Shown: in pieces, positions 12,061 through 64,000 of the stretch
Numbering within the stretch: the first letter of the stretch is position 1
Layout of the letters: each line of letters begins with the position of its first letter
NCBI GenBank assembly: GCA_020444515.1
Contig: JAHLKX010000002.1
Coordinates: 520,146 to 584,145 of the forward strand
From: Bacteroidota bacterium
GTDB taxonomy: Bacteria > Bacteroidota > Bacteroidia > Bacteroidales > JAADJA01
Direction: 5' to 3'
DNA: 64,000 nt
Translations under genes and position numbers: made by a program
The notes under the pieces: model-generated
What the model was told of the DNA's origin: nothing
What the model saw: the letters and a program-made list of their open reading frames with translations, nothing else
Databases searched by the model: none

Positions 12061-12072
12061 AATTCAAATTAA

Positions 12073-18451: not shown

Positions 18452-18463
18452 AATTAAACGTTT

Positions 18464-25139: not shown

Positions 25140-26663
25140 TTACAGTTGAAATTTATTCACATCTTCCTTCGGCAATTCGAGCGGGTAATTTTTTAAAAAT
25201 TCTACCGAAGCCTTAATATCTTTGTACATCACCTGATCGTCTTCTACGAAGGCTACTTTTTCACGATATGCTTTTATAAAATTTTCAAGGTAGGGCGATG
25301 ATTTCGCCGGTCTTCTGAATTCCAGTGCTTGCGCGGCATTGAACAATTCAATAGCCAATATTCGTTCCAGGTTTTCAAGCACCCGAAATGTTTTGGTTGC
25401 AGCGTTGGCTCCCATGCTCACGTGGTCTTCCTGTCCTTTGGAGGATTCGATGGAATCGACGGAAGATGGGGTACAAAGCGATTTATTCTGGCTCACAATG
25501 GAAGCCGAAGTATATTGCGGGATCATAAATCCCGAATTCAAACCGGGATTGGCCACCAGGAATGGCGGCAACCCTCTTGCGCCTGAAAGCAACTGGTAGG
25601 TTCTTCTCTCAGAAATATTCCCCAATTCAGCCATGGCGATGGCGAGGTTATCCAGGGCCAGGGCCAAAGGTTGTCCATGGAAATTACCGGCCGAGATGAT
25701 CAGATCTTCATCCGGGAAAATGGTTGGATTATCCGTAACGGAGTTGATCTCTTTGCGGAACACATAAGCCACATAATTGATTGAATCCTTGGAAGCACCG
25801 TGCACCTGCGGAATACAGCGGAATGAGTAAGGATCCTGCACGTGTTCTTTTTTACGGTTGATCAGTTCGCTACCTTCCAGAATATTGGTGATCCGTTCAG
25901 CGGTTTTAATCTGCCCTTTGTGAGGGCGGATTTGCTGGATGAGGGGATGAAAGGGTTCAATCCTTCCATCAAACGCTTCGAGAGAGAGTGCTCCTATTAC
26001 ATCGGCCAGCCGGGAAAGTTTAAAGATCCGTAGGCAGCAATAAACACCATACGCACTCATGAACTGAGTTCCGTTGAGCAACGCCAGTCCGGCCTTGGAT
26101 TTGAGTTCGATTGGATCCCAATTCATCTCCTTCAAAACATCAGCAGAATCTCTTTTCTTACCTTTAAAATATACTTCACCCATGCCCAACAGCGGCAACG
26201 ACAAATGGGCCAGCGGCGCCAGATCACCCGAAGCTCCCAGGGATCCCTGTTGGTAAACAACCGGAATAATGTCATGGTTATAAAAATCAACCAACCTTTG
26301 CACTGTTTCCAGTTGCACGCCCGACAGGCCATAAGAGAGGCCCTGCACCTTTAGCAACAACATCAGCTTGACGATCTCCCGCGGTACCCCGTCGCCGGTT
26401 CCACAGGCATGCGACATTACCAGGTTTTTTTGCAAGGTACTCAGGTCTTTTTTATCGATGGTGCGGTTGTAGAGAGCGCCAAAGCCGGTATTGATCCCAT
26501 AAATGGGTTCGGTTTGGGATTCCATTTTTTTATCGAGGTAATCACGGCATCGGGTTATCTTCGATTTTGCTTCATCTGAAAGTTCGAGTTTTTTCTTGTA
26601 CCGGCTGATCTGCTCAATATCCTCAAAGTTGAGTTTGTCGGAAGTAACAAAGTGAACCGCCAT
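25140..26663 (-). CDS. hutH: Histidine ammonia-lyase
   Basis: 507 aa with 'GSLGASGDLAPLAHL' (MIO), 'NLVMSHACGTG' (the Ser-His pair typical of HAL) and 'QEDHVSMG'. Confidence 0.85.
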   Translation of the reverse strand: MAVHFVTSDKLNFEDIEQISRYKKKLELSDEAKSKITRCRDYLDKKMESQTEPIYGINTGFGALYNRTIDKKDLSTLQKNLVMSHACGTGDGVPREIVKLMLLLKVQGLSYGLSGVQLETVQRLVDFYNHDIIPVVYQQGSLGASGDLAPLAHLSLPLLGMGEVYFKGKKRDSADVLKEMNWDPIELKSKAGLALLNGTQFMSAYGVYCCLRIFKLSRLADVIGALSLEAFDGRIEPFHPLIQQIRPHKGQIKTAERITNILEGSELINRKKEHVQDPYSFRCIPQVHGASKDSINYVAYVFRKEINSVTDNPTIFPDEDLIISAGNFHGQPLALALDNLAIAMAELGNISERRTYQLLSGARGLPPFLVANPGLNSGFMIPQYTSASIVSQNKSLCTPSSVDSIESSKGQEDHVSMGANAATKTFRVLENLERILAIELFNAAQALEFRRPAKSSPYLENFIKAYREKVAFVEDDQVMYKDIKASVEFLKNYPLELPKEDVNKFQL

Positions 26664-42964: not shown

Positions 42965-43050
42965 TTTTTTGCCCAGATATTTAATAACATTGTATGTATC
43001 ATACAAGAGGCTTAAAACCCTGCCTATTCATTAATTTTAATTTATTAGTC

Positions 43051-48500: not shown

Positions 48501-51500
48501 ACCTTTGTCTTTAATGGCCCTGCAACAAGCTTCAGTTCGAATACGAACAGTCATTTTAATAACCTTGAAATAAATTCTACTGGTAAAATTGATTTTCTGA
48601 CTGATGTTGAAATAAGGGGTGATCTAACCATCAATGCAGGGAGTCTGGATATCAATGGTCATGTTATTTCAATTGAAGGTGACTGGACCAATAATGTCGG
48701 GGTCTCAGCTTTTTATGGCACTAATGGAACGGTTGTTTTTACCGGTGATGTAAACCAATATATTACCGAAGATGAGACAATCAATATAATAGAACTGGAT
48801 AAAACTGGTGGAAGTCTGATTATTAACAACTTTGATACAGAAGTCACATGCAGTCAGTTCAACTGGACCCAGGGCAGATTAGAAATGCTAAATGGTGAAT
48901 TTACAGCATTTGACCTCACAGATAATGGCATTTTTGGAGATTATTATATGGAAGGAGGAACCATCAATTTGATGAATTATGATGGATTTGTTGACTTGAA
49001 CGGCGACTTGACCATAATGGGAGGATTTTTTAATGTTTATGGCGGGATTGATGATAGCTTTTGGTCCTATGCCGGAAATGCATCCCTGGTTATGACGGAC
49101 GGTATTTTAGATTTTCATGATGCAGGGATCAATGTTTTTGACTCTCCTACTTTTTCATTCAGTGAAAGCGTTTCAGGAGGAATTATCAAAACAACAGGTG
49201 ATTTTAATTGTGAACGTTCAGATTTTACAATCACAAATTGTGAACTTAGGATGTATGGACCAGAAAATGCTTTTATAAGCCAGGTTGAAGGTTGTCAATT
49301 TGATGATGTTCGGTTTGAGAAAGGAGCAGTAGATAATTCCACTTCTTTCATAACTCAGTCATTTAAAAAAGAAAGTCTTCAATTAAAATCCAGAAAAAAG
49401 AAGGGACTCAATTCACTTCAGAATTCAAAGAATGGCAGTAAAAGCAACCTTGTGAGCGCAGCATCGGATCTGCAAATTATGGGAACCCTGCGTGTTTCAG
49501 ATGGCGAATTTGACCTAAACGGAAACAAGGTGACTGTGGTAGACGATGTTATTGTTAGCGCCGATTTTACTATGAATAGCCCCGATGATGAATTATGGGT
49601 GGGTGATATGCTTAAATGGCAATCAGGAGCATATGGGAATATTACAGATGGCTTGATCAAATTTAAGGGTCTCTGGTCTTTTGAAGACGGGAGCAATGTT
49701 TTAATTTCCACTGGTAATTCAGCAATTGCCATCGGAACAGTAAATCAAAACATTAATTGTTATGATGATAATTCTGGTTTTGGTAACTTAATTCTAAATC
49801 AGCAAAGCACAGGAAAAACGATATCCAGTGCAGGATCACAACCCATCCGGGTTACCGGTGACCTAACCATTGATTCTGATAATACGCTCAATCTAAATAA
49901 TGACGATATGGTTGTATCCGGGCAGGTATTTACATATATTTCTTCATCCCTCATCGTTGAAAACGGAGGGAGTTTTACAGCTGAAAATGACTTTGATTTA
50001 TTTGGATCAGCCCATCTAATAGATGGAAATATCACAGTCAGTAATGATTTCTACCTTAACACCTCTGGAAACCTCATCATTGATGGTGGAAGTTTTATCA
50101 TGGATCGAAACAGTGTTGAGCAATTCCAGGTGTTGAACGGATACTTAGAAATGAATGGAGGTTTATTAGAAGCCACTTTCAACGGAATTATCTTTGGTCA
50201 GAATACCACACTGACAATGAGCGGTGGTGAAATTGCTACCGGATGGGATTTCAGTGCTTACCAGGACAATTTGTTTCAACCGGCCGGAGGTGCTGTAAGG
50301 ATGATCGGCATTGCCACTGCTTCGATTAACCTGAATGAAACTTGCTATTTTCATGATCTGATCATTGATAAACCGGTTAGCACTGAAGCCGACATCAGTC
50401 AAACCATTTTAGTCAAGAATGATCTAAAAATCGGATCGGGTATTTTTAATACAGCAGGATTTGATCTGATGGTAGAAAACGATGTCGTTATTGAACCCGA
50501 TGGTGTGCTTAATCCGGGGAACAATACGGTTACTGTCAGGGGTGACTGGAGCAACAATCATGGTGATGCCGGATTTCTTGAGAATAACAGTATTACAGTG
50601 TTTGTTGGAAATGAAACCTCACACATTCGCACAGATGAAACATTTTATGATTTACAAGTCGATAAAAACTACAGCCCATATACCTATTTATGGAGTGATA
50701 GCAATTATACGGTCAATGTTTGGCGTTTACTGATCAATACCTGCTCATACAGGCTGGATATTAATTCAACATTGAATGTTTCCGGAAATCTGGTAATCGG
50801 AGAAGATTGCAACCTTTTTGCTCCCAGCTCGGGTGATTCGTATATCAATATTCAGGGTAACTGGATCAATCAAAATACATCCGGTATTCCATGGGTTTAT
50901 GGATTTTTATATGGGACTTCTACGGTTACTTTTAATGGCATTGAAGATCAATTTGTTGAATCCGATAATGGAATGCAGGATTTTTACAATTTGGTTATTG
51001 ATAAAACAAATGGTGATTTTTATCCATTGGCTGATATTGAAATATATAATGACCTAAACATCAATAATGGAATTTGGGGTATGGATTCACCTGGTCAAAC
51101 ATTTTCTTTTTATGGTGATGTCAATATCGCCTCAAATGGTGAATTTTATGATTTTACATCCACTGTCAATATATTTGGATCAGATCAGCAATCTTTTACT
51201 AATTTGGGTCCGTGGACGTCCTATGTTGGCTCTCTGAATATTGCAATGACTTCATCCTCTGCGGATAATTTACCGGTGTTTACCATCCTGGGTAAAATGC
51301 AATGTTCCGGTTCCGTTAATGTAAATAATGGGAACTTTGATTTGAATTCTCAAACGGTTGAATGCCTTGAAAATTTTACGATTAATGAAGATGGTAAAGT
51401 AACGGCAACCGGTCAATCAAAAATTGCAATGGGAGATGGAAGCGCCTTATCGGTTAGTGGCGGGGAATTGTATATTGTTGGTGGTGCACCTCCAAATCCC

Positions 51501-54500
51501 ATTGTTACATCCGTGAGTGGAAATTATGAATTCAGTGTTTTAAATGGGGGCTTGTTAACAGCAGCAAATGCTGTCTTTCAATACATGGATGCCTCGGGTG
51601 TGAATATTTATCCAACGGGAGTATTATTTGATATCAATCCATTTAATCAATGTGCATTCCTGAATGGAGAAGCAGGAGGAACATTGTTGCAAATTAATAA
51701 TGATCAGGATCTGGTTTTCAACACCGTTAATTTCTCAACAAACACCTGGGGTGGGACTTATAATGTTACCAAAAATAACAATGAAGGATCGATCAATTTT
51801 ATTAACTATTTAGGTGATTTTAGTGGAGAAACCTATGAAAATGATCCTTACAATAGGATAACATGGGGCAATCCGGTGCCAGGTATCTGGACTGGAGCCG
51901 TGAGTCAGATATGGAATTTGGCAGGAAACTGGGAAAATAGTTTAAAACCAACTGCAACTGATGATGTGTATATTCCTGCTGGAACTCCCAATGATCCCTG
52001 GGTATCACAGGCAGACCAGGAATGCAATAACATCATCATTGATCCGGGTGCCAGTTTGAGAATTTACGATGAAATACTTACTGTTCACGGAGATATGTAT
52101 GTTCATGGAGAGCTCAAAATGGATCATGTTTCTGGTGTGTTAAATGCAGGTGATGGCTTTGGTGATAAAATAGTTTGGGAGGCCGGATCAACAGATAACA
52201 TTACACTGGGTACGATCAATGTATATGGGGACTGGTACTTTAATAATGGTACAAGCGCACAGTTGGGAGTCGGAAATGTGGTTAATTTTTATGGCACCAA
52301 TCGTTCGTATATTTATTGCGATGATGATGATGCCGCCTTTGGAAATATAACTATAAATAAAACAGCCTCACCAAAAGACTTTGTTTATGTCCCTGCAAAT
52401 AATAGTCTCAGGGTGTTGGAAGATTTATATGTTTTTGATGGAATTCTGGATCTGAAAGAAAATAGCTATTGTAATGTTGGAAATGAATTCGTTATCATCA
52501 GCGGTTGTACGCTAAATTCTCTGGGTACCCCCGGGAACGAGGCTACCATTTCAGGATTTCCAAATTATTGTATGTTGGATATCGATAATGGGGCTACCAT
52601 CAGTGCTGAATATACGATTTTTGAATACCTCGAGGGCAATGGACTTTCAATAAACCCAACGGCTACCATTGATCCGCTCCATCCGCTTAATCATTGTACT
52701 TTCAGAGAGAGTCCAGCAGGAGGGAAATTATTAACCATTGCCAATGATCAGATACTGACAATTGATGGTGCAACATTTCCTCACAATTACTGGAGTGGTT
52801 CGAACAATGTATCAAAAATAAATGATGCAGGCCACATCACCTTTACCAATGTCGATGGTGGTTTTGTGGGATCTAATTATGAAAATGATCCCTATAATAG
52901 GGTTGATTGGCCGGGGGTGGTTCCCGGTATCTGGACAGGTGCAGGAAACAGCTTGTGGAATGTTTTAGTGAACTGGAAGTATGAATTAAGACCCACCGCA
53001 ACAGATGATGTAATTATTCCGGCCGGTACACCGCATGATCCAAGAGTGACTTTACTGCCTCAGGAATGCAATAGTATTACGGTTGAAGCGGGTGCATCCC
53101 TCGAAATTTATAATCAAATATTGAATGTTCACGGCGATTTGATCATTCACGGTGAGTTGATCATGAATCATGCAGGCAGTGAATTGTATGCGGGTGATTC
53201 CTTTGGTGATGAAATCAGCTGGGAACCAGGCTCTAAAGCCGATGTGAATTATGGTACCATTTACGTTTATGGAAACTGGAATTTTAAAGATGGTACCGAT
53301 GCCCAGTTTGGTTGGGGTAATACTGTTGTATTTAATGGAGGTAATTTTTCAACGATTTATTGTGATGACGATAATGCAACATTTGGAAATCTGACCATCA
53401 ATAAACCCACTCCACCCAAAGATTTTGTTACAGTGTCCACCAATCATGTTTTAAGGGTTGCTGAAGACTTTTATATTGGAGATGGGAGTTTAAGGATATT
53501 TGAAAATACCACATTTACAGTTGGGAATGAATTGTATGTTGATGACGGTGCAATGCTGATTTCAATGGGTACGGCGGGTAACAATGCCTTAATAAGCGGA
53601 ACTTCCAATTATTGTTTATTGGAAATCGCGAGTGGTGCGACCATTAGTGCGGAATATACGGATTTTCAATTTCTAGAAGGCCAAGGACTTACGATCAATC
53701 CGGGTGCAATCATTGATCCACTGCACCCCTTAAATTATTGTTCATTTAGTGAAAGCCCGGCCGGAGGAACTTTGTTGACCATTGAGAATGACCAGGTAGT
53801 GACCATTGATGGGGTGAACTTTCCACCCAACAGCTGGGGTGGAGCCAATAATGTTACCAAATCATTTGATCAGGGACAGGTTATATTTACCAATGTGCAG
53901 GGAACCTTTGTAGGAGCGGATTTTGAAAATGATCCCAATGACCGGATTGACTGGCCGGGGATCGTGGCGGGTATATGGACAGGCGCTGTAAGTACCATTT
54001 GGGATGATCCCGCAAACTGGGCCTATCATTTGAAACCGGATGTCTCAGATGATGTTGTGATCCCGGCAGGTACAGCTCACGATTGCTGGGTTACCAATGC
54101 TGATCAGGAATGCAACTCAGTGACCATTGAAAGTGGAGCAACCCTGGTCGTTTACGATAAAGTTTTAACGGTTTATAGCGACATCATTATAAACGGACAA
54201 TTAAAAATGGATCATCCATCAGGTGTTTTAAATGCAGGTGATGGATTTGGTGACCTTGTTTCATGGGAGCCGGGTTCCTCTGCGGCTGTTACTGCTGGAA
54301 CCATTAATGTATATGGTGACTGGTATTTCAATAATGGAATTGATGCCCAGTTTGGATCCGGAAATACAGTGGTTTTTATGGGTACCAACCGTTCTCATAT
54401 TTACTGGGATGATTTTGATGCCGAATTTGGAAATCTGATCGTTAATAAATCAGCTTCACCCAAAGACTATGTTTATATTGCGGCTTATGATTCAATATTG

Positions 54501-55763
54501 ATCGCAGAAGATGTATACATCATGGATGGTGTTCTTGAAATTGGTTACGGAGCCCGGTTTTATGTAGGGAATGAGTTTTATGTAGAAGATGGAGGAAGCC
54601 TGATGGCCATGGGATTGCCGGGAAGGGACATCGTTATTTCCGGATGGCCGGACCACTGTTTGATGGAAATTGCTGATGGAGGGAAGATCGGTGCCCAGTA
54701 TACCGTTTTTGATCACCTGGGATATTATGGATTAACCATTAATCCGGGAGCAACAATTGACCCGTCCTATGCATTTTCGAATTGCACATTCCAGGAAGGA
54801 TTAGCAGGTGGAAATGTATTAACAATTAACAACGACCAGGATTTGACCATTTACAATGCCCATTTCCCATCCAATACCTGGGGTGGCGATTATAATGTTT
54901 CAAAAAGTGCCTCATCCGGAGATATTAACTTCATGGATGCCTCAGGGGTGTTCAGGGGTGAAGATTATGAAAATGATCCCAATAACCTGATCCACTGGGG
55001 ACTCCGCAATATAGACCTGAACCTCAAGGTTTATCTGGAAGGTCCTTATCTTCCGGCATCAGGTGGATTGATGACGACCGAATTGAATACAGGTGGATAT
55101 ATTCCTTTGGCTCATCCATATAATCCTTCGTTACCTTATTACGATATTTCCAATCCGGCTGATTTGAAATGGCTTTATACAGGGACGGAGAGTGTAACCA
55201 GTATACCCATGAATGCAGTGGATTGGGTCCTGGTTCAGTTGCGCGATGCCACCTCAGCTGCCACTGCCACCTCAGCTACCATACTTGAAACACAGGCTGC
55301 CTTCCTGATGAACGATGGTTCTATCGTTGGTCTGGATGGTGTTTCGCCTATTCATTTTTTCCTGGCTTATTCCAATAATCTGTATGTGGTCATATTCCAC
55401 CGCAACCACCTGGCTATTATCTCTAATAATCCGTTGGTGGAATCTGGCGGCTTGTATTCACATGATTTTTCATCATCCGAAATGCAAGCGCTGGGTGGCG
55501 CTAATGGACATAAGGAATTAGAACCGGGTGTCTGGGGGATGGTCTCCTCCGATGGCAATGGAAATGGTCTGATACAAAATACGGATGAGACCGCCGTTTG
55601 GAAAACGGACCTTGGAAGCTCAGGCTACCGGGGTGGTGATTTTAATATGAACGGCCTCACCCAGAATACCGATGAAACCAATTACTGGAAAGTAAATTTA
55701 GGTTCCGGAGGGCAAACACCCGGGAAAAACAATACCGGGTACGAAAGCCAGGTGCCAGATTAA
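45573..55763 (+). CDS. Giant (3396 aa) secreted protein: gingipain-like C25 cysteine peptidase head, beta-helix-like repeat body, non-T9SS C-terminal module
   Basis: N-terminal hydrophobic signal. Propeptide-like 'ELTLLTIYPYQYNPVQKRLTVYPDLKITVSF'. C25 motifs 'YLLFIGDAENIPP' and 'YADYDDPMDYVADFGYGRL'. The catalytic His/Cys context 'FRAHGSWSGWGD...NRPFIWSITCQSGWF' has the His codon at 47127 and the Cys codon at 47226. A GGAGG lies 5 nt before the ATG. Confidence 0.85.
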   Translation: MKKFTLKTQIPRSLLIPMYTFAIAFLCFWSIDLVSQTNMDIVNVNVTNERRLDISINAETNLQFVEKEYGDRNVYKNFWVNGASKVAPGNPNVHSYARWILIPNGTKINITFSHGLPVDYENIDLAPAQPEPYDNENAPRPAFTKNEVVYSRDADFPGVFAETDGIKRKRGQELTLLTIYPYQYNPVQKRLTVYPDLKITVSFSGTIHPIPPNLKTKNLEYSLKSMAINGEAVLAAEVSAGTTSNGDNINYSNGCDLLIITDPAFENAANTLASWKIRKGIYTWVYNTSVTGNTFTQIENFIDNAYETWSPAPEYLLFIGDAENIPPGYILYEDENDLGTDIFYADYDDPMDYVADFGYGRLSVDNVADADSVVARIIRYERTPSTNPNYYNQILNASCFQDGENGVEGEPDELPDHYANRRFCKTSEDVRNYLMSQGFLSQREYVAYNRVNYDEIFPENWMDLNQSWSGGIFENDNPPDGGDPIPAELLKPGFPWDGSTAGISAAFNAGKFFAIFRAHGSWSGWGDPDFHSWNVDALNNGENRPFIWSITCQSGWFDNETDNASYGSSNSQECFAEHWLRHNTGGSCGILAAARNSSSGKNDRLIWGMMDAIWPGFLTWSMDPYGGPDPIYRMGDVINYGKGYMATKYPGYETTTIALFHWFGDPTSEMWTSQPNELTNALVTSPINIGTSSITVQVTPAVENMLVAICMENSDDIFGTAYTNSSGIATVNLNHSITLEDVIYVTITKHNYKPYEFEAGWNIQGIWSGSISSDWHNANNWTPNQVPDASNSVLIPNGCSNYPVIVSPVAECENLLIAQNASVTIGNTQLHVNGDLTVFGELAMTTSSSNLQVTGTVSWEDGSSANITNGSAMIVAYYDWVFKTGSNVHLDNGFVNFSGNLSQAIKCNSTDSYFNHLIIAKDENKYMYYSGSSTEDMVIKGNLFIDAGTRLRHYSDNKMILYGLFDCDGSHYFASGTFVFNGPATSFSSNTNSHFNNLEINSTGKIDFLTDVEIRGDLTINAGSLDINGHVISIEGDWTNNVGVSAFYGTNGTVVFTGDVNQYITEDETINIIELDKTGGSLIINNFDTEVTCSQFNWTQGRLEMLNGEFTAFDLTDNGIFGDYYMEGGTINLMNYDGFVDLNGDLTIMGGFFNVYGGIDDSFWSYAGNASLVMTDGILDFHDAGINVFDSPTFSFSESVSGGIIKTTGDFNCERSDFTITNCELRMYGPENAFISQVEGCQFDDVRFEKGAVDNSTSFITQSFKKESLQLKSRKKKGLNSLQNSKNGSKSNLVSAASDLQIMGTLRVSDGEFDLNGNKVTVVDDVIVSADFTMNSPDDELWVGDMLKWQSGAYGNITDGLIKFKGLWSFEDGSNVLISTGNSAIAIGTVNQNINCYDDNSGFGNLILNQQSTGKTISSAGSQPIRVTGDLTIDSDNTLNLNNDDMVVSGQVFTYISSSLIVENGGSFTAENDFDLFGSAHLIDGNITVSNDFYLNTSGNLIIDGGSFIMDRNSVEQFQVLNGYLEMNGGLLEATFNGIIFGQNTTLTMSGGEIATGWDFSAYQDNLFQPAGGAVRMIGIATASINLNETCYFHDLIIDKPVSTEADISQTILVKNDLKIGSGIFNTAGFDLMVENDVVIEPDGVLNPGNNTVTVRGDWSNNHGDAGFLENNSITVFVGNETSHIRTDETFYDLQVDKNYSPYTYLWSDSNYTVNVWRLLINTCSYRLDINSTLNVSGNLVIGEDCNLFAPSSGDSYINIQGNWINQNTSGIPWVYGFLYGTSTVTFNGIEDQFVESDNGMQDFYNLVIDKTNGDFYPLADIEIYNDLNINNGIWGMDSPGQTFSFYGDVNIASNGEFYDFTSTVNIFGSDQQSFTNLGPWTSYVGSLNIAMTSSSADNLPVFTILGKMQCSGSVNVNNGNFDLNSQTVECLENFTINEDGKVTATGQSKIAMGDGSALSVSGGELYIVGGAPPNPIVTSVSGNYEFSVLNGGLLTAANAVFQYMDASGVNIYPTGVLFDINPFNQCAFLNGEAGGTLLQINNDQDLVFNTVNFSTNTWGGTYNVTKNNNEGSINFINYLGDFSGETYENDPYNRITWGNPVPGIWTGAVSQIWNLAGNWENSLKPTATDDVYIPAGTPNDPWVSQADQECNNIIIDPGASLRIYDEILTVHGDMYVHGELKMDHVSGVLNAGDGFGDKIVWEAGSTDNITLGTINVYGDWYFNNGTSAQLGVGNVVNFYGTNRSYIYCDDDDAAFGNITINKTASPKDFVYVPANNSLRVLEDLYVFDGILDLKENSYCNVGNEFVIISGCTLNSLGTPGNEATISGFPNYCMLDIDNGATISAEYTIFEYLEGNGLSINPTATIDPLHPLNHCTFRESPAGGKLLTIANDQILTIDGATFPHNYWSGSNNVSKINDAGHITFTNVDGGFVGSNYENDPYNRVDWPGVVPGIWTGAGNSLWNVLVNWKYELRPTATDDVIIPAGTPHDPRVTLLPQECNSITVEAGASLEIYNQILNVHGDLIIHGELIMNHAGSELYAGDSFGDEISWEPGSKADVNYGTIYVYGNWNFKDGTDAQFGWGNTVVFNGGNFSTIYCDDDNATFGNLTINKPTPPKDFVTVSTNHVLRVAEDFYIGDGSLRIFENTTFTVGNELYVDDGAMLISMGTAGNNALISGTSNYCLLEIASGATISAEYTDFQFLEGQGLTINPGAIIDPLHPLNYCSFSESPAGGTLLTIENDQVVTIDGVNFPPNSWGGANNVTKSFDQGQVIFTNVQGTFVGADFENDPNDRIDWPGIVAGIWTGAVSTIWDDPANWAYHLKPDVSDDVVIPAGTAHDCWVTNADQECNSVTIESGATLVVYDKVLTVYSDIIINGQLKMDHPSGVLNAGDGFGDLVSWEPGSSAAVTAGTINVYGDWYFNNGIDAQFGSGNTVVFMGTNRSHIYWDDFDAEFGNLIVNKSASPKDYVYIAAYDSILIAEDVYIMDGVLEIGYGARFYVGNEFYVEDGGSLMAMGLPGRDIVISGWPDHCLMEIADGGKIGAQYTVFDHLGYYGLTINPGATIDPSYAFSNCTFQEGLAGGNVLTINNDQDLTIYNAHFPSNTWGGDYNVSKSASSGDINFMDASGVFRGEDYENDPNNLIHWGLRNIDLNLKVYLEGPYLPASGGLMTTELNTGGYIPLAHPYNPSLPYYDISNPADLKWLYTGTESVTSIPMNAVDWVLVQLRDATSAATATSATILETQAAFLMNDGSIVGLDGVSPIHFFLAYSNNLYVVIFHRNHLAIISNNPLVESGGLYSHDFSSSEMQALGGANGHKELEPGVWGMVSSDGNGNGLIQNTDETAVWKTDLGSSGYRGGDFNMNGLTQNTDETNYWKVNLGSGGQTPGKNNTGYESQVPD
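51834..54965 (+). repeat. Three in-frame tandem coding repeats of exactly 1044 nt (348 codons) inside the giant gene
   Basis: The unit landmark 'YENDPYNR(I/V)(T/D)W' or 'FENDPNDRIDW' recurs at 51834, 52878, 53922 and 54966. A partial unit (the last ~120 aa) precedes 51834. Confidence 0.9.
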
Positions 55764-56049: not shown

Positions 56050-56949
56050 TTAAATTCCCTTGAGTGTCATAATTATTCCTTGTTTCAAGGATGTAATATC
56101 TTCTTGGCCTTTTATATCTAGTTCCTCAATTATTTCAATAATATTTTCAATTTTTGTTTCTTTCTTCAATAATTTCGTAATTATTTGGCTTAGCATATTT
56201 ATTGTCCTGTCTTCATTTCTTGAGATATTTAATGCTGGTACATTTATTACATAACCATCTTTATCCTCAAACTCTAAATCATATCTTTCTTTTCCATTTT
56301 GTCCAATTACCATAACAATCAGTCCATCTTCAATCCAGGGTGGTAAATAAAAATCGCTAACTTTTAAAATATAAATTTCAACTGGCATCCCTAAATCATA
56401 CCCTAAAACCGCAATATAACCTTCTCTATTAATATCAAATCTAAATATTTTACATTTGATTTTTTTTGGTCTATTGTATTTTTTATTTTTTTTTGGAATA
56501 AACTGGTCGAGTCGTTTACCTACTTTTAAAACTAATTCATCTGGATTTCTGAAGTAATCTATTGTGTGCCTTTGCTTTAGTTTTTTTTTGAAATCTTCAA
56601 GTTTCTTGTAATTTTCAAAGTCTATAAATTTTGGTAATATTAAGCTTTCACTTTCATCAATTAAATAGATAAATATTTCTTTGTTCTTTTCATAAGCAAC
56701 TTCATATTCAATTTCTGTAAATGATTTTTTTGTTTTTCTATCGGTGCTGCCGTATCTCATACCTATAATTCCAAGGTATATATCACATTCGTAAGCAAAT
56801 TCAATACAAGTTTCCAATGGAGTAGTTGTTCTTGCGCCAAATTCTTCCATCCCTCTTACTATTAATTTAAAATTTTTAAGCAATTCCCAAATAGCTTTTC
56901 GATGAGGTATTAGATCAATGTAAGTTGATGATACAAATATCTTTTTCAT
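56050..56949 (-). CDS. DUF4062 (TIR-like) domain protein with uncharacterised C-terminal domain
   Basis: 'MKKIFVSSTYIDLIPHRKAIWELL...ECDIYLGIIGMRYGS...FTEIEYEVAYEKNKEIFIYLID' matches the DUF4062 signature as I remember it. The coding sequence is very AT-rich compared with the flanks. Confidence 0.7.
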   Translation of the reverse strand: MKKIFVSSTYIDLIPHRKAIWELLKNFKLIVRGMEEFGARTTTPLETCIEFAYECDIYLGIIGMRYGSTDRKTKKSFTEIEYEVAYEKNKEIFIYLIDESESLILPKFIDFENYKKLEDFKKKLKQRHTIDYFRNPDELVLKVGKRLDQFIPKKNKKYNRPKKIKCKIFRFDINREGYIAVLGYDLGMPVEIYILKVSDFYLPPWIEDGLIVMVIGQNGKERYDLEFEDKDGYVINVPALNISRNEDRTINMLSQIITKLLKKETKIENIIEIIEELDIKGQEDITSLKQGIIMTLKGI

Positions 56950-56957
56950 TTATTGCT

Positions 56958-57183
56958 ATAACTTTACTTTGTCTTTAATTGATTTCTTCCTCAATCCACG
57001 AGTGTTCATTTTAAGCAAGAGAGCTTGCATCACTCTTGCGTTGATAACAAGGCACCAGTCACAACAGCACACGAGCCTTGATCGCGCGAGTGTTTCTGCA
57101 AAGATAGTGCGAAAGCGTCACTCGTGCATTAAAACACGAGGCTTCAGTCGCACGAATATTCAGCCCTGAGCTGTAAGACTGGC
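56958..57183. repeat. Structured intergenic repeat, copy B (two ~55-nt cores)
   Basis: Cores at about 57022-57072 and 57107-57160. The hairpin at 57107-57153 has stems gtgcg/cgcac, aagc/gctt and ctcgtg/cacgag. The repeat covers the last 8 codons and the stop of the 57160-57657 ORF. Confidence 0.7.
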
Positions 57184-57657
57184 GCCTGATAGCGTATTAA
57201 ATATAATCTTTTTTGATTTTTCCTCAAAACCGACTAGGTCATTTTTGCTCCAGCCTAAGCGGTTCACCTCTCTAATTTCGGCAATGAACTTTTTATTATC
57301 ATAAAAAGTCAGGGCATTTATAATATTCCCGATGCCGTAACTTTTCTTTTTAAAAAATACTTTTAGGTCTTCGTAAGGAATGCTCTGCTGGGATTTTAAA
57401 AATGTAAACTGGTAATAGCTTAGAATTAGTTTTTTATTTGCGTCATCAAAAAAAACTTCGAAAATGAGCCTGGTATTCTTTCTAAACAACAATAGTATTA
57501 TAAGTGAAACAAGGGAAATTTCAATTTTAATCCAATTTTGGACAAACAACTCCAGATTGTAAAATGCCAGAAAAGAATTCACAATTAGGATGTAATAAAC
57601 TTCTCCATTAATCCGGTTAATCCAACTTATTTTTTTAAGATAATTATTACGTTCCAT
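57160..57657 (-). CDS. Hypothetical 2-TM membrane protein with small soluble C-terminal domain
   Basis: 165 aa with TM helices 'VYYILIVNSFLAFYNLELFV' and 'IEISLVSLIILLLF'. AT-rich, and on the same strand as the DUF4062 gene. Confidence 0.55.
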   Translation of the reverse strand: MERNNYLKKISWINRINGEVYYILIVNSFLAFYNLELFVQNWIKIEISLVSLIILLLFRKNTRLIFEVFFDDANKKLILSYYQFTFLKSQQSIPYEDLKVFFKKKSYGIGNIINALTFYDNKKFIAEIREVNRLGWSKNDLVGFEEKSKKIIFNTLSGASLTAQG

Positions 57658-57849: not shown

Positions 57850-59739
57850 ATGAAAAAACTACTACTTATTTGTTTTTCACTCAGTTTTGTGTTTTCAATT
57901 TATGCCCAGCAGCGCACAGTGCCAACCAAAGCCATGCGCGACTTTGCGGTACGCAAAGGACAACCCGTTCACTTTGAAACCGGATTTGAAAAAACAGCCG
58001 GAATCCCTGCCTTGAAAAGTGTGACAGAAGTTGAGGAAGAGATCATTGGTGCCACCCGTTATGACCTGCAGTCTAATGCGAGTTGCCAAAACCGTTTGCA
58101 TGTTTTTGAAGATGGTACCATAGGTGCCACCTGGACCATGGGTTTTGAGGATCCTGGTTTTTCTGATCGTGGTACCGGTTATAATTATTTTGATGGATCA
58201 GAATGGGGCGAAATACCAACACAACATATTGAAAGTTTGCGCACTGGCTGGCCTTCATACGCACCTTATGGTGAGAATGGAGAGCTAGTTGTTTCGCATG
58301 ATTTTGGCCCGGCTCCTGCAGGTGATCCCGGAACGCTTCGTATAAATATTAGAGATACTAAAGGCAGTGGGGTATGGGCTGAAGATGTGTTTTATGGTCC
58401 GGATATCGAAATATCATGGCCACGAGCCACAACCTCGGGAATTGATAATAGTGTAATCCAGATGCTGGCCATCACCTGGCCCACACCCAATGGTGGTCCT
58501 GTTTATGAAGGCTTGGATGGAGCCTTGCTTTATTCACGCTCTGCAGATGGCGGTGCTACCTGGGATCCTCAAAATATGATCCTTGAAGGAATTTCATCTG
58601 ATTATTATTTTGGATTTTCAGCAGATGATTATGATTGGGCCGCATCACAAGGAGATAACATTGCTTTCCTTGCTGGAAATTCATGGTATGACTTCATCTT
58701 GATGAAATCGACGGATGGTGGTGATACCTGGGAAAAAACGGTGATCTGGGAGCATCCCTATCCATTCTTCAGCACGACAACCCCTATTGAAACCGATACT
58801 TTCTATTGTGTTGACGGCGCTCACCACCTGGCTTTCGATTCGCAAGGTAAGGTACACGTTGTCTTTGGAATCAACCGGGCTTATGCAGACGCAGCCGGAA
58901 CATATTGGTTCCCCCTTGTGGATGGTGTGGGCTACTGGAATGAAGATATGCCAACGTTCAGCAATGATCTCAATGCACTGAATCCATATGGTGAAGCAGG
59001 CACTGAACTTGTAGAAGATGAAAGCCTGATTGGTTGGTGGCAGGACCTGAATAACAATGGTGAATGGGATATCCTGGGAGAAGTTGGTGCTTATTACATT
59101 AGTGCATCCGGAATGCCGCAGATCGTAATTGATGATATGGACTATATTTATCTCGTATTTTCAGGGGTAACTGAGTCTTATAATAACGGTGCACAGGATT
59201 TCCGCCACATTTGGGCAAGGGGTTCCTGGGGTGAAGGCGTTTGGGGTGATTTTATTGATCTTACCGGCGATCTGATCCACATCTTTGATGAATGTGTATT
59301 TCCATCAGCTGCTCCGGCAACGGATGATTATTTCTACCTTATGTTCCAGACGGATGCTGAACCAGGACTGGCTGTTCGTGGTGACGAAGATCCTTATACA
59401 GATAATAATATGTATTTTATGAAAGTGAGCCGCAACGACCTTATTCCGGTTGGTGTTGAAGAATTATCCGAGCCCATTACCGCTGAGGGTGTCTCTCAAA
59501 ATATGCCCAATCCGTTTACTGGAACTTCATGGGTAAACATAGAGGTTCAGAAAACCTGTGATCTGAGTCTTGAGGTGACCAACATTACCGGACAGGTTGT
59601 ATATGCCATTGCCCCAAAAGAATTTCAGGCTGGATCTTACCGGCTTCCCATTCACGCCGAAAACCTGACCAAAGGTGTTTATTTTTACACTGTGAAAGCC
59701 GGGGATACTTCAGTAACAAAGAAAATGATTGTTGAATAG
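57850..59739 (+). CDS. Secreted Asp-box beta-propeller-like protein with T9SS type-A C-terminal domain (paralog 4 of 4)
   Basis: Signal peptide MKKLLLICFSLSFVFSIYAQ. Asp-boxes 'SADGGATWD' and 'STDGGDTWEK'. C-terminal domain 'VSQNMPNPFTGTSWV...GVYFYTVKAGDTSVTKKMIVE'. Confidence 0.8.
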   Translation: MKKLLLICFSLSFVFSIYAQQRTVPTKAMRDFAVRKGQPVHFETGFEKTAGIPALKSVTEVEEEIIGATRYDLQSNASCQNRLHVFEDGTIGATWTMGFEDPGFSDRGTGYNYFDGSEWGEIPTQHIESLRTGWPSYAPYGENGELVVSHDFGPAPAGDPGTLRINIRDTKGSGVWAEDVFYGPDIEISWPRATTSGIDNSVIQMLAITWPTPNGGPVYEGLDGALLYSRSADGGATWDPQNMILEGISSDYYFGFSADDYDWAASQGDNIAFLAGNSWYDFILMKSTDGGDTWEKTVIWEHPYPFFSTTTPIETDTFYCVDGAHHLAFDSQGKVHVVFGINRAYADAAGTYWFPLVDGVGYWNEDMPTFSNDLNALNPYGEAGTELVEDESLIGWWQDLNNNGEWDILGEVGAYYISASGMPQIVIDDMDYIYLVFSGVTESYNNGAQDFRHIWARGSWGEGVWGDFIDLTGDLIHIFDECVFPSAAPATDDYFYLMFQTDAEPGLAVRGDEDPYTDNNMYFMKVSRNDLIPVGVEELSEPITAEGVSQNMPNPFTGTSWVNIEVQKTCDLSLEVTNITGQVVYAIAPKEFQAGSYRLPIHAENLTKGVYFYTVKAGDTSVTKKMIVE

Positions 59740-59787: not shown

Positions 59788-61257
59788 TTATAGTGGACTT
59801 TGGTACCCCTGGTTCCCTTTCCAGATTTCATTTTTATCTTTATTGTCTACCTGTCCGTCGAGGTTGTAATCGGCTGATTGATATCCTGGTGATCCGGTAT
59901 AGGAAGACCATATCTGGACTTTGTCGGGATTGGAAATTTGCTGGTCACAATTGCCGTCTCCACCTACCATCACACACGGTCCATTTTGCAAACATTTGTA
60001 ACCGGTGCTGCCTCCCCATGCTGATAATAGATCGAAAGTGAAATCATAATTGTACATTCCATTGAAATTATTGGCTGGTAAGGAGGATAAAATACCCAGA
60101 TGATTCCGGTGCTGAGCAATCACAAAGAGCCATTGATTGATATTTCCGGGCACTTTGGGTAGGTTACCTGAAGCAGCTTGGATTGTTCCGTTTGATAATA
60201 AAATGGCCGCTTCCTTATGAATGGAGGGCGAAGATAATGCTTCAGCTGGTGATGAAGCATCGCGATAATCCAGTAGAATCCAATCAACCATATCCTCTGG
60301 AATGGAAGCCAGGGTTTCATTTCCATTATAATTCCATGGATTACCGGAGAAAGGTTGAACGATGGGCGTTAATCCGGCATCGGCGAGGGTTGTCTGCATC
60401 ATCCCGTCTTTATAAGGTCCTTCCAGATAAAGTTTTAAGTTTATGGGAACCGAGGTGTAATCCCACCCCCGCAGCTTGGCCATCATCCACCAAACCGCTT
60501 TGGCTTTGATGATATTCGAAAGTTCATTAACATGACCGCAGCTGTCTCCGCCGAATGCATCGTGTTGAAGCGGTATGGTATCATTGTTATAGATATAATA
60601 ATTCATTTCACCATTATACCAGCAATCCAGATCAGCAAAGTCAAAAAGCACCTTGTCATTATCCTTACAATATTGCCGGATAATCTCGTTGTTCTGATGA
60701 CGGGAATAACCAAAAACACTGTTCTTTTGGGCATTGCAGGTGAAATAAATAAAGGTTACATCAGGGAAATAGGATTCCAGGGCGGCCAGTGAATCAAAAT
60801 AAATCTGAAGATCCGCTGATGAATAATATTCCATTTGTGTGCACCAGCAAAAAGCCGACACATTGATCTCAGGGTTATTATTCAGTACGTCGATGGTCCA
60901 GCTCATGCCCGATTCATCCAGGTAATAACCTTCAGGAGTGATATAGGTGAAGTTTTCCTGTCCGTCAAAAATACAAAGTGCACCTTCCTCCTCGGGGAGT
61001 GCACTGAACTCAAGTGCAAAGCTGTAGGTTGTATCGGTATTTTCAATGCTTTCCAGTCCGCAGGTCAACGAATGTCCATGGGAAGTATGTGCATAGTGCC
61101 ATTTGATATTTTGTTGTATATCATCAATAACTTCCTGGGGAATCAGGTCGATATCCACACAATTGTGATCTATAACAATTCCCTGGCTTGCTCCTTTTAT
61201 GGTGCAAAGGAGAAAAAGATTTATCAGAAATAAGAAACCGTACTTCATGGCATTCAT
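59788..61257 (-). CDS. Secreted protein: uncharacterised N-terminal (possibly hydrolase-like) domain plus shared C-terminal dockerin-like module
   Basis: Signal peptide 'FLFLINLFLLCTIKGASQ'. The N-terminal domain, with 'WHYAHTSHGHS', is of unknown family. The C-terminal 'LKLYLEGPY...AQHRNHLGILS...GDGNCDQQISNPDK...ADYNLDGQVDNKDK' is homologous to the tails of the giant protein and of the 61430 gene. Confidence 0.7.
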   Translation of the reverse strand: MNAMKYGFLFLINLFLLCTIKGASQGIVIDHNCVDIDLIPQEVIDDIQQNIKWHYAHTSHGHSLTCGLESIENTDTTYSFALEFSALPEEEGALCIFDGQENFTYITPEGYYLDESGMSWTIDVLNNNPEINVSAFCWCTQMEYYSSADLQIYFDSLAALESYFPDVTFIYFTCNAQKNSVFGYSRHQNNEIIRQYCKDNDKVLFDFADLDCWYNGEMNYYIYNNDTIPLQHDAFGGDSCGHVNELSNIIKAKAVWWMMAKLRGWDYTSVPINLKLYLEGPYKDGMMQTTLADAGLTPIVQPFSGNPWNYNGNETLASIPEDMVDWILLDYRDASSPAEALSSPSIHKEAAILLSNGTIQAASGNLPKVPGNINQWLFVIAQHRNHLGILSSLPANNFNGMYNYDFTFDLLSAWGGSTGYKCLQNGPCVMVGGDGNCDQQISNPDKVQIWSSYTGSPGYQSADYNLDGQVDNKDKNEIWKGNQGYQSPL

Positions 61258-61429: not shown

Positions 61430-64000
61430 CTATTTGGGTACCTGCGACCTGTATCCCGATTGGTTTGTCTTAGTCGTGATTTGACCACCGCTTCCGAGGT
61501 TTACTTTCCAGTAATTGGTTTCATCGGTGTTTTGAGCAATACCATTCATGTCAAAGTCTCCTCCAAGGTATCCCGACTGGCCCAGATCTGTTTTCCAGAC
61601 AGCAGTCTCATCTGTATTTTGGATGATTCCATTCCCATTGCCATCGCCGGCAACCATTCCCCAGACACCTATTTCGATTTCCTTGTGACCATTTGCTCCT
61701 CCATATACCTGGCCGGCATCATTGGTAAAATCATAACCATAAATACCACCTGATTCGGATAAAGGGTATGCCGACATAATACCCAGGTGATTTCGCTGAA
61801 ATACAACAACGTAAAGGTTTTGTGAAATTACAGCTGAAAAGCTCAATGCACTTACACCATCCAACCCGACGACGGTTCCGTCAGCCAAAACAAATCCTGC
61901 CTGCTGGCCGATAATAGTTGCTGAGGTAGCATTTTCAGGTGTACCTGAATCGCGTAATTGCACCAATACCCAGTCCACCACATCATTGGGAACAGATGGC
62001 ACGGTCTCAGTCCCGGTATACAGCCATGCAGGGTATTCTTCGTCATAATAAGGGGTGGGAGGATTGTAGGGCTGCAATGTCGGAATGTATCCCCCTGAAA
62101 GGAGGAAAGTTTCCATCAGATGTGAAGCCGAATTATAGGGGCCCTCAAGGAATACTTTTAAATCCACCACTACCTGTGCATTGGAGAACTGGTATTCATA
62201 GGCACCCATGTCTATTCGGTCGTTTGAAATTCGGGGATTCCCTCCCAAATCAAATTCGGGAAGATTCATTCCTGTGGTGTCAGGGTTTCCGGAATCTACA
62301 CAGGGCGAAGTTTCTGCAATATCAAATTGACCATAATAGGGTGTAAATTGCGGATCTGAATCAATATTGCCAGTACCACCATATCCACCTTCTATATCCG
62401 AGTATTCAATGCTTACAGTGCCTCCTGTTGATTCAATTTCAGTTGGTGAATTATTCCAGAAAATTGCGTTTTTGAAAACGGGACTCCCGTTATAATTATA
62501 TAATCCTCCTCCTTCACCTGGTTCACCTACGCTATTCCCGGTGATTGTCACATTGGTAAATATTGAACTATTCCCTTCAAGATAGATCCCTCCACCGTTA
62601 TTGTCTGAAGTTGAATTGTTGGCTATAACCGTATTGTAATAATGATGATTAGCACTGGATTGAAGGTATAAACCACCACCCCGGTCCGCTGAATTGTGCT
62701 CTATCCAGCAGTTTTTGACGGTGGTTTGACTCTGGGTTTGCGAAAAAATTCCCCCACCAATGGCATCCGCATGATTAAACAAAATTTCTACATTATCAAT
62801 AACCGGATCAGAATAGTAGCTTATCCAAATTCCGCCACCAGTTCCAAAATATCCACTTACATGTGTTAGCGCCTGATTGTTTTGAATTGTCGAATTTTTT
62901 ATCATCGCATCGCTATCCCAGTCTATGTACAAGCCGGCGCCGTTGACAGCCGTATTATGATTTATATAAGAAGAGTCGATGGTGACATCACTGTAAAAAT
63001 TAATTTTAATACCACCTCCTTTATAGGTCGTAAAATTGTCATCAATATAACAATCTATCATGCTGGCATTTGAGTAGTTGTAAAAACAGATACCTCCACC
63101 GCCGTTTTCGCTGATGTTGTCTTTTATCCTGATACCATTCAAAACGGGATCACTGTGATTGGAGCAATACATTCCTCCGCCTTCTTCTTCAGCATAGTTC
63201 AACTTAACTTCAAGATCGAAAAGGGTTGGTGAACTGTAATTTTCGAGCCGGATGCCGCCCCCATATTCTCCATAACCTCCTTCAAAACTGATACTGTCGA
63301 TGGTTAACCCGGAATCATTATAACAATAAAGCAACTGGTTTTTATCTTCCCCATAAATGGTTGTTTCTTCTATGCCCTGACCATGCATGTTCACAAAACT
63401 CCGCCAGTTTATTGGAAAAACTTCGCCTGTAGCCCCTTCCGAATAAGTTCCTTCATCGAGATAAATGGTGCGGGGATTGCCTTCATCAGCGAGTATTTTC
63501 AAGCAGGCCATATACATGGTTTTTAGCGGCTCTGATTCAGAAGTGCCAGGATTCTCGTCTGATCCAATCATGCTTACAAATAGATCGCTGGCCACTTGTG
63601 GAATTAACCCGTTATCAATGGTAAAATTGAATTTGCTGAAGGGATAGGCAAAGTGTTTATGCGGATTGGCTACGGTGAAGGTATCCAAGATGACTGAAGT
63701 TGATGTTTGATAGCCTGCGTAATAGAAATCAAGACCTGCTCCCCCTGCATAATTTAAATAGACCTGGTTTTTATCGGTATCGTCGAAAAAGAAATTACCA
63801 CCGGAGGCATAATAAATAGCACCGCCAAATTGTTCGGCTCTGTTATTGCGAATGGTATTCCCGGCCAGGTAAATATTGGATGAATAAGCGCTCAAAGCAC
63901 CGCCATTATTAGCCCTGTTGTTTTGGAACAGGTTATCTTTAAAATAAAAGTCACCGGCTGAATTGCCATACATAGCACCGCCATTGGGCGCATAATTATT
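61430..64000 (-). CDS. Secreted right-handed beta-helix (PbH1/choice-of-anchor-like) repeat protein with shared C-terminal dockerin-like module; 5' end outside window
   Basis: The frame is open to the window edge. Repeated 'NGGGIY', 'GGGLY' and 'GGAIYY' turns. The helix ends with 'DPQFTPYYGQFDIAETSPCVDSGNP...RIDMGAYEY', followed by 'LKVFLEGPY...FQRNHLGIMS...GDGNGNGIIQNTDE...GDFDMNGIAQNTDE'. Confidence 0.8.
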   Translation of the reverse strand, partial: NNYAPNGGAMYGNSAGDFYFKDNLFQNNRANNGGALSAYSSNIYLAGNTIRNNRAEQFGGAIYYASGGNFFFDDTDKNQVYLNYAGGAGLDFYYAGYQTSTSVILDTFTVANPHKHFAYPFSKFNFTIDNGLIPQVASDLFVSMIGSDENPGTSESEPLKTMYMACLKILADEGNPRTIYLDEGTYSEGATGEVFPINWRSFVNMHGQGIEETTIYGEDKNQLLYCYNDSGLTIDSISFEGGYGEYGGGIRLENYSSPTLFDLEVKLNYAEEEGGGMYCSNHSDPVLNGIRIKDNISENGGGGICFYNYSNASMIDCYIDDNFTTYKGGGIKINFYSDVTIDSSYINHNTAVNGAGLYIDWDSDAMIKNSTIQNNQALTHVSGYFGTGGGIWISYYSDPVIDNVEILFNHADAIGGGIFSQTQSQTTVKNCWIEHNSADRGGGLYLQSSANHHYYNTVIANNSTSDNNGGGIYLEGNSSIFTNVTITGNSVGEPGEGGGLYNYNGSPVFKNAIFWNNSPTEIESTGGTVSIEYSDIEGGYGGTGNIDSDPQFTPYYGQFDIAETSPCVDSGNPDTTGMNLPEFDLGGNPRISNDRIDMGAYEYQFSNAQVVVDLKVFLEGPYNSASHLMETFLLSGGYIPTLQPYNPPTPYYDEEYPAWLYTGTETVPSVPNDVVDWVLVQLRDSGTPENATSATIIGQQAGFVLADGTVVGLDGVSALSFSAVISQNLYVVVFQRNHLGIMSAYPLSESGGIYGYDFTNDAGQVYGGANGHKEIEIGVWGMVAGDGNGNGIIQNTDETAVWKTDLGQSGYLGGDFDMNGIAQNTDETNYWKVNLGSGGQITTKTNQSGYRSQVPK

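Follow-up and report, generated by a model that had tools for sequence, protein, structure and literature searches.

The 64-kb stretch of DNA analysed here (contig JAHLKX010000002.1 of a Bacteroidota bacterium), referred to below as the window, encodes a giant secreted protein that ends in a module of about 250 residues, and the nature of this C-terminal module, which also terminates two other proteins of the window, is the subject of this report. The giant protein has 3396 residues and lies on the plus strand (45573-55763), as assigned from the list of open reading frames (ORFs), the translation, and a Pfam scan. It is of the gingipain type, with a signal-peptide-like N-terminus followed by Propeptide_C25, Peptidase_C25, the C25 Ig-like domain, a long repeat region, and the C-terminal module. 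The Pfam scan detected no tail of the type IX secretion system (T9SS) in the giant protein, whereas five other proteins of the window (3422-5266, 5456-7339, 34305-36620, 42994-44928, and 57850-59739) have the Pfam domain Por_Secre_tail, in agreement with the original prediction made from the sequence. The last of the five, a secreted protein of 629 residues on the plus strand with Por_Secre_tail at residues 553-628, is used as the comparison gene for the T9SS type-A tail.

Translation of positions 55008-55760 on the plus strand gives exactly the tail quoted in the original prediction, which is the C-terminus of the 3396-residue ORF; coordinates of the module are window positions, and residue numbers are counted within this tail. 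The module is made up of two halves. Residues 1-180 (55008-55547, plus strand) form the beta-sandwich half, delimited by conservation and by strands that AlphaFold2 predicts with a local distance difference test score (pLDDT) of 94-98, and residues 181-240 (55548-55727, plus strand) form a dockerin-like half with two repeats of a calcium loop and a helix, as judged from AlphaFold2, hhalign, and Foldseek. Loop 1, DGNGNGLIQNTD (55551-55586, plus strand), and loop 2, DFNMNGLTQNTD (55638-55673, plus strand), were located by translation, pattern search, and conservation; they start at D182 and D211, respectively, which confirms the predicted distance of 29 residues. Behind them lies a flexible C-terminal extension, NNTGYESQVPD (55728-55760, plus strand), recognised by a pLDDT below 50 at residues 242-251 and by the tail statistics described below. 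Upstream of the module, residues ~2100-3140 of the giant protein (within 45573-55007, plus strand) consist of three repeats of ~330 residues, each with the motif Y-E-N-D-P-x-N-R-I-x-W at its end; the last copy of this motif adjoins the module directly, and unrelated homologs, for example P0004 and P0034, likewise have the motif in front of the module, where names of the form P#### denote protein-database representatives and names of the form L###, used below, denote loci fetched from related genomes or metagenome-assembled genomes (MAGs), with nucleotide coordinates.

As had been predicted, the same module ends two further proteins; both of these are encoded on the minus strand, which the original prediction did not state. 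The first is a secreted protein of 489 residues (59788-61257), identified as an ORF and by the Pfam scan, which found no Pfam domain in it; the protein is a member of a conserved family with the module in four genomes. Its module copy (59791-60444) is a short variant ending in ...GYQSPL, with a degenerate loop 1, DGNCDQQISNPD (59923-59958), and loop 2, DYNLDGQVDNKD (59836-59871). The other is a beta-helix protein with PMP repeats of at least 847 residues (61430-64000; ORF 61430-63973), the N-terminus of which is cut by the window edge. Its module copy (61433-62170) is a long variant ending in GYRSQVPK, with loop 1, DGNGNGIIQNTD (61610-61645), and loop 2, DFDMNGIAQNTD (61523-61558).

The calcium loops had been described as two perfect patterns. 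They are real, conserved, and far above chance, since a relaxed form of the pattern has five matches in the ~20,000 residues of the window ORFs compared with 0.05 expected from shuffled sequences, but the word perfect slightly overstates the case: T occupies loop position 8 in loop 2 of the giant protein, A occupies the same position in loop 2 of the 847-residue protein, and Q replaces G at position 6 in loop 1 of the 489-residue protein. The Asp and Asn positions of the loops, the conservation of which was a point on which the original prediction could fail, turned out to be almost invariant over 80 homologs: the ligand residues D182, D193, D211, and D222 are retained in 79, 80, 80, and 79 of the 80 sequences, and N or D is found at loop positions 3 and 5 in 69-76 of them. 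In the beta-sandwich, W73, R79, and R132-N133-H134 (the 'HRNHL' motif) are invariant, and W55, Y57, Y150, Y152, and F154 are nearly so.

With the alignment of 80 sequences as input, AlphaFold2 gives a confident model of the whole module as a single compact unit (pLDDT 93.5, predicted template modelling score (pTM) 0.90), in which residues 1-180 form the beta-sandwich, the helices 191-201 and 220-230 stand directly behind the two loops, where a helix after each loop had been expected, and disorder is limited to the last 10 residues. The isolated loop region of 76 residues gives a poor model (pLDDT 55, pTM 0.29) that is not suitable for a fold search. Because the loop region alone is predicted not to fold, the two halves appear to be one obligate unit, or dyad. 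In a Foldseek search of the PDB, the top matches of the module are 4u3s_B (E 0.02, probability 0.95), 4wi0_B, 4fl4_L, and 2b59_B, all of them X-module-dockerin dyads from clostridial scaffoldins, although these matches are weak, with E values of 0.02-0.3 and target-normalised template modelling scores (TM-scores) of 0.48-0.61.

A sequence profile comparison points in the same direction. The hhalign reference consisted of five clostridial dockerin sequences that were verified with Pfam at E values of 1e-18 to 1e-23. Against this reference, the two loops of the module profile fell into register with the two dockerin repeats (probability 87.5%, P 3.6e-6, score 31.4), whereas 60 column-shuffled control profiles reached a mean score of 9.3 and a maximum of 17, none being comparable. 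The same program returned a probability of 0.6% for a local T9SS type-A tail profile and 0.5% for a cohesin profile, and on this ground the reading of the module as a disguised T9SS tail or cohesin is rejected. Among the members of the family, Dockerin_1 is the most frequently matched Pfam family (8 of 80 at E<=1, best E 7.7e-5), and one member, P0072, passes its gathering threshold with 27.1 bits against the required 22.9; the same loops of P0072 also give weak FG-GAP matches. In P0072, which is labelled as a Thermoplasmatota archaeon MAG, possibly through misbinning, the module is followed by a low-complexity linker of 90 residues and then by a C-terminal end that resembles a membrane anchor in being hydrophobic and basic. 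Taken by its sequence pattern and its model, the segment has the two tandem F-hand repeats expected of a dockerin, each with a 12-residue loop (D or N at positions 1, 3, and 5, and D at position 12) and a helix behind it, and a dockerin-like nature of the last ~60 residues of the module is supported at the sequence level. The geometry had been ascribed to clostridial type-I dockerins; the dockerin-like loop pair stands, but the whole resembles the type-II X-module-dockerin dyad more than a type-I dockerin that stands by itself, and the loop region of the module is predicted not to fold alone.

The extreme C-terminus is conserved as strictly as had been suggested by the end GYESQVPD, and this is a general property of the family. 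In 347 non-redundant proteins with the module at the C-terminus, Pro is found at position -2 in 294 and the chain ends in Q-[VI]-P-(x) in 238, with the consensus [SC]-Q-[VI]-P-[EDNQK]-COOH. In long variants, to which the giant and the 847-residue proteins belong, a variable, probably flexible linker of 6-20 residues separates an internal GGQ[VIT]P from a second copy of the motif, G-[YF]-x-[SC]-Q-[VI]-P-x, with which the chain ends; in the giant protein, NNTGYESQVPD restores the terminal motif in this way behind an internal GGQTP. The duplicated motif is located at 55701-55760 of the window and is seen likewise in the tails of P0001-P0030 and L006-L013. Since the motif is duplicated at the new end of the long variants, the free C-terminal end is apparently read by something, which keeps alive the idea of a sorting signal and also the model of piggy-back export considered below.

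The family is very large. A search with a single sequence retrieved 588 relatives, nearly all of them 'hypothetical' proteins of uncultured Bacteroidales MAGs, and a profile search of 1.84 billion representatives retrieved 14,530 clusters (50% identity) at E<=1e-3, of which 4,955 were retained at E<=1e-30. A scan of species-representative genomes added at least 574 confirmed matches; those listed are all in Bacteroidales or Bacteroidota MAGs, apart from a few labelled Chlorobiota. Many copies can occur in one genome, as single MAGs supply 5-11 of the best 80 loci and some MAGs hold more than 10. The module lies within 20 residues of the C-terminus in 130 of 143 representatives and in 112 of 125 complete ORFs of the fetched loci, and signal-peptide-like N-termini were found in 97 of 106 carriers by a crude hydrophobicity test, so that the carriers do not have the look of cytoplasmic proteins. 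A C-terminal signal behind calcium repeats, of the kind used by type I secretion systems, is rejected because the carriers have Sec-type N-terminal signal peptides. In about 10% of family members the module is internal, in tandem, or followed by other domains: P0121, P0122, and P0124 contain 2-5 seamless tandem copies with junctions such as ...SQVPN joined directly to DLQVYVNLKVFLEGPY, and in ~5-8% of the proteins Fib_succ_major or PKD domains come after the module. The arrangement of the module followed by Fib_succ_major (PF09603), with no T9SS tail, is seen in L007:13067-18751, L034:14634-15995, L042:347-5218, L067:2952-8381, and L072:5174-10054, and in P0065, P0184, P0185, and P0208. The passengers of the module also include BACON, GH18, and PKD domain fusions. 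The boundaries of the module, its conservation, predicted fold, dockerin-like register, C-terminal placement, and occurrence in multiple copies are thus established by the present data.

How the module is related to the T9SS tail can be judged from recent paralogs. The proteins L074:8804-10669 and L074:4767-6260 share 84% identity over residues 1-398, beyond which the module follows in one and a T9SS tail in the other, and the same switch is observed between L084:6344-10672 and L084:1777-5970, which are 59% identical over ~1090 residues. Passengers of the GEVED, beta-helix, and BNR types are found with either the module or the T9SS tail. Since recent paralogs swap the C-terminal cassette and the same passenger types carry either one, the claim that the module replaces the T9SS C-terminal domain is a fair description. 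The three module tails of the window have no match in Pfam or NCBIfam at E<=1, and this holds for the curated models of the type-A tail (PF18962/TIGR04183) as well as of the type-B tail (PF13585 CHU_C/TIGR04131); together with the hhalign result, the scan thus bears out that the tail differs from the known T9SS C-terminal domains. In at least four proteins (L016, L035, L060, and P0125), an internal module is combined with a genuine terminal Por_Secre_tail, and the T9SS tails of the same loci are within 15 residues of the end in 65 of 65 cases. Because internal copies, tandem copies, and copies combined with a T9SS tail exist, its behaviour is more that of a binding module than that of a cleavable export signal.

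The cohesin-like partner postulated in the original prediction is plausible. None is encoded in the window, but in related genomes there are cohesin proteins that end in the module and are encoded next to genes with cohesins and T9SS tails. About 5% of the retrieved family members have cohesins N-terminal to the module. Four Pfam cohesins precede the C-terminal module in L044:573-4022 (best E 4e-25), L073:1203-4649 (best E 8e-23), and P0142 (best E 6e-26); two are found by Pfam in L014:8279-10663 (best E 2.5e-17) and one in P0188 (best E 2.1e-11), each of which has three according to an iterated hidden Markov model (HMM), also with the module at the C-terminus, and the iterated HMM finds three in L053:8285-10672 as well. 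In at least five MAGs, a T9SS-tailed gene of the cohesin type lies directly upstream of a gene with 1-4 cohesins and the module, which makes up a two-gene unit (L014:2861-10663, L053:4219-10672, L073:1-4649, L035:1231-12382, and L001:7974-11218). The upstream genes L014:2861-8227 and L053:4219-8232 encode beta-helix repeats, Dockerin_1, Cohesin, and Por_Secre_tail; L073:1-1188 encodes Dockerin_1, a cohesin-like stretch, and Por_Secre_tail; L001:7974-9956 encodes Cohesin and Por_Secre_tail; and L035:1231-7395 encodes Dockerin_1 and a T9SS tail, with no cohesin detected. Among 120 relatives of the L053 anchor tail, a cohesin is combined with a T9SS tail in 60, the order dockerin-cohesin-tail is present in 41, and the module is present in none. 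By analogy, the unit resembles the clostridial sca clusters, in which a scaffoldin ending in an X-dockerin is encoded beside an anchoring scaffoldin, the anchor here probably being the T9SS tail. A cohesin-profile search of the protein database gave two matches, and a cohesin scan of metagenome contigs gave three loci, two of which were already in the locus set; both searches are too narrow to measure the size of the cohesin family. Fusion of the module to cohesin arrays, its adjacency to genes with cohesins and T9SS tails, and cassette swapping between paralogs are established here as well. The module system looks linked to T9SS through the T9SS-tailed cohesin proteins, rather than operating in parallel with it as had been proposed.

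Collectively, we favour, with moderate confidence, the explanation that the tail serves for docking, as a divergent X-dockerin-like module within a cohesin-dockerin system linked to T9SS. The module of ~220-250 residues would be a rigid pair, in which a beta-sandwich of ~180 residues with a new sequence family packs on a divergent dockerin of ~60 residues with two Ca2+-binding loop-helix ('F-hand') repeats, and this architecture would be the analog of the X-module-dockerin dyad at the end of clostridial scaffoldins. Carriers would be exported by the Sec pathway, and the module would then bind in a Ca2+-dependent manner to the cohesins of scaffold or anchor proteins, part of which would be held on the cell surface by a T9SS type-A tail. 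In this way, passengers such as proteases and beta-helix adhesins would be displayed or assembled on the outside of the cell instead of being attached by a T9SS tail of their own. Several observations weigh against such an interpretation. The window lacks a cohesin, as said above; the window copies do not score against PF00404 Dockerin_1 at E<=1; a search of PDB sequences with the family HMM profile brought up no dockerin and just two chance-level matches (E 0.49 and 1.5); and Foldseek gave nothing at E<=1e-3 in the PDB. In addition, the scaffold cohesins could have their true ligands in the canonical Dockerin_1 modules that related genomes also contain, and the invariant polar cluster (R79 and R132-N133-H134) could be a ligand site unrelated to cohesin binding. 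A plain docking module accounts neither for the strict [SC]-Q-[VI]-P-x-COOH end and its duplication in long variants nor for the crossing of the outer membrane by carriers that have no T9SS tail.

A rival explanation is a new C-terminal export or sorting signal, which would be read by the secretion or attachment machinery of the outer membrane, whether a T9SS variant or another system, and would reside in the module or its terminal motif as the equivalent of a T9SS tail. In favour of such a signal, the module is at the exact C-terminus in ~90% of the proteins, with the chain ending one residue past Pro in 294 of 347, and the terminal motif is restored across the 6-20-residue linker at the new end of long variants. 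The module also swaps cleanly with T9SS tails between recent paralogs, is carried by giant surface-type proteins as their sole tail, and occurs in many copies per genome, as sorting domains do. The module, however, departs from this behaviour by standing internally in front of a terminal Por_Secre_tail in the four or more proteins named above, by forming seamless arrays of 2-5 copies, and by being followed by Fib_succ_major or PKD domains, while all 65 T9SS tails in the same loci stay within 15 residues of the end; it has no profile similarity to T9SS tails, and no gene for a PorP/SprF-like protein or other machinery is conserved beside the module genes. The new class of secretion signal offered as an alternative in the original prediction is thus disfavoured, and we regard it as unlikely. 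A variant that joins both ideas would make the module a trans-acting T9SS address tag: carriers would dock in the periplasm on T9SS-tailed cohesin proteins, leave the cell piggy-back as a complex, and be displayed on the surface, with the terminal [SC]-Q-[VI]-P-x-COOH as a second element for recognition or processing. This piggy-back export is a speculative extension, to which we assign a slightly lower probability than to the sorting signal itself.

The conserved aromatic and polar residues of the beta-sandwich (W73, R79, and R132-N133-H134, with the nearly invariant W55, Y57, Y150, Y152, and F154) raise instead the thought of a Ca2+-dependent anchor similar to a lectin or carbohydrate-binding module, which would bind a glycan or lipopolysaccharide of the cell itself or a substrate, so that the calcium loops would only stabilise the fold and the ligand would not be a cohesin. 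The tandem arrays of the module and its fusions to BACON, GH18, and PKD domains are shared with carbohydrate-binding modules, and generic beta-sandwich carbohydrate-binding modules and Calx-beta Ca-binding domains are among the weak Foldseek matches, but all of these matches have E>0.3 and a TM-score below 0.3, no specific match to a carbohydrate-binding module or lectin was obtained, and the best structural and profile matches are dockerins and X-dockerin dyads. Fusion to cohesin arrays and pairing with genes for cohesins and T9SS tails would be unexpected for a lectin, and a glycan anchor is held to be about as improbable as a sorting signal. It could also be argued that the similarity to dockerins is convergent and that the module is a structural stalk or spacer with no specific partner, since D-x-N-x-D-G loops are common in extracellular proteins such as those with FG-GAP or thrombospondin-type repeats. 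The FG-GAP matches of P0072, the complete failure of the window copies to match Dockerin_1, and the weak Foldseek statistics can be cited for it, whereas the register of two loop-helix units with both dockerin repeats and the extreme conservation, terminal placement, and cohesin association, which point to a specific function, make it the least probable of the explanations considered.

The docking module can be compared with several known systems. The type-II X-module-dockerin dyads of C. thermocellum CipA (2b59 and 4fl4) and A. cellulolyticus ScaA (4u3s and 4wi0) have, as is predicted for the module, an Ig-like beta-sandwich packed rigidly on a two-repeat Ca-loop dockerin at the extreme C-terminus, and in both cases the unit terminates multi-cohesin proteins with the gene of a single-cohesin surface anchor adjoining. 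The two differ in that no sequence similarity of the module to X modules was detected, its sandwich has ~180 residues with a long conserved loop insertion in place of ~100, and the linker between its repeats is short (9 residues) with no middle helix. Moreover, the module is mostly on enzymes and adhesins, with more than 10 per genome, and not just on scaffoldins; its presumed anchor is a T9SS tail in a diderm, whereas the clostridial anchors are S-layer homology (SLH) domains or sortase in Gram-positive bacteria; and nothing there corresponds to its strict [SC]-Q-[VI]-P-x terminus. With type-I dockerins (PF00404) the module shares the duplicated 12-residue Ca loop and helix, the mostly C-terminal position on secreted enzymes, and the register of both repeats, and a minority of family members match the Pfam model. 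It is set apart from them by loop starts 29 residues apart, compared to ~32-34 in the five dockerins used, by a conserved Trp at repeat position 17, by the missing PF00404 match of the window copies, and by the predicted need of the segment for the beta-sandwich in order to fold. The T9SS type-A tail (PF18962 Por_Secre_tail/TIGR04183) stands, like the module, at the C-terminus of passengers of the same kinds (C25 peptidase, beta-helix, GEVED, and BNR), is interchangeable with the module between recent paralogs, and is likewise present in many copies per genome with a precisely placed end. The module is, however, about three times larger, has a predicted helical Ca-binding part, shows no sequence or profile similarity to it, and can be internal, in tandem, or in front of a true T9SS tail.

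The closest precedent for the system as a whole is the cellulosome-like system of Cloacimonadota 'Ca. Stygibacter', which was inferred computationally by Williams et al. 2021 (PMC8542988) and consists of signal-peptide proteins with C-terminal dockerins, including a gingipain-like C25 peptidase, and a T9SS-tailed cohesin scaffoldin (PMC8542988). Both systems belong to diderms of the Fibrobacteres-Chlorobi-Bacteroidetes (FCB) group and combine dockerin-type tags on secreted proteins with a cohesin protein anchored by a T9SS tail, and both are computational inferences; the dockerins of Cloacimonadota are canonical and detectable by InterPro, whereas those of Bacteroidales described here are an unannotated dyad of a beta-sandwich and a divergent dockerin. 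Canonical dockerins have also been reported from rumen Bacteroidetes (PMC6487960). The system-level idea therefore has precedent, because both the canonical dockerins (PMC6487960) and the Cloacimonadota scaffoldin model (PMC8542988) were already reported; for the module itself, literature searches brought up no earlier description, only these two reports. What is new is the module itself, that is, an unannotated and very large family, its dyad of beta-sandwich and divergent dockerin, and its strict terminal motif; within one clade of uncultured Bacteroidales, it is the chief alternative to the T9SS tail.

The genes around the module were also surveyed. Clustering of 859 ORFs from 85 loci, around 122 module genes, revealed no recurrent PorP/SprF-like or other machinery neighbour of the kind that was to be looked for, and the neighbour families that did recur among these ORFs are confined to shared passengers and to generic regulators or receptors. 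Signal-peptide proteins of ~1000-1090 residues with a coiled-coil-like C-terminus recur near module genes, with 26 members in eight genomes (L054:12503-15775, L044:6737-9772, L016:15619-18675, and 23 more), and carry neither the module nor a T9SS tail. Between the module genes of the window lie a DUF4062-domain protein of 299 residues (56050-56949, minus strand) and an unannotated ORF of 165 residues (57160-57657, minus strand), both of which look unrelated to secretion; the DUF4062 protein might be defence-related. Elsewhere in the window, two paralogous aromatic amino-acid lyases of 507 residues each (22967-24490 and 25140-26663, minus strand) are separated by ~650 bp and match Pfam Lyase_aromatic with E values of 1e-163 and 2e-192, respectively. 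A cluster at 8480-16027 (minus strand) comprises a TonB-dependent receptor (935 residues), two DUF4249 proteins (385 and 413 residues), and a 780-residue MG2/CarboxypepD_reg protein, and a SusC/SusD pair is located apart from it at 17018-21772.

The family comprises more than 14,000 sequence clusters for which no Pfam or NCBIfam model exists and the proteins of which are annotated only as "hypothetical", and predictions of the secretome that count T9SS tails alone would miss its carriers. Cohesin-dockerin assembly on the surface is the classic design of Gram-positive cellulosome producers, and within the group considered here such display has so far been inferred in silico for just one other phylum. 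The finding raises the questions of how proteins that have no T9SS tail exit the periplasm and what reads the invariant C-terminal pentapeptide, and a new orthogonal cohesin-dockerin pair would serve the engineering of protein assemblies. Piggy-back export, if true, would be a new mode of substrate recruitment to T9SS and would imply widespread cellulosome-like display in Bacteroidota. If cohesins are what the module docks on, many uncultured Bacteroidales would assemble their surface proteases, adhesins, and enzymes through a cohesin-dockerin system that is tied to T9SS.

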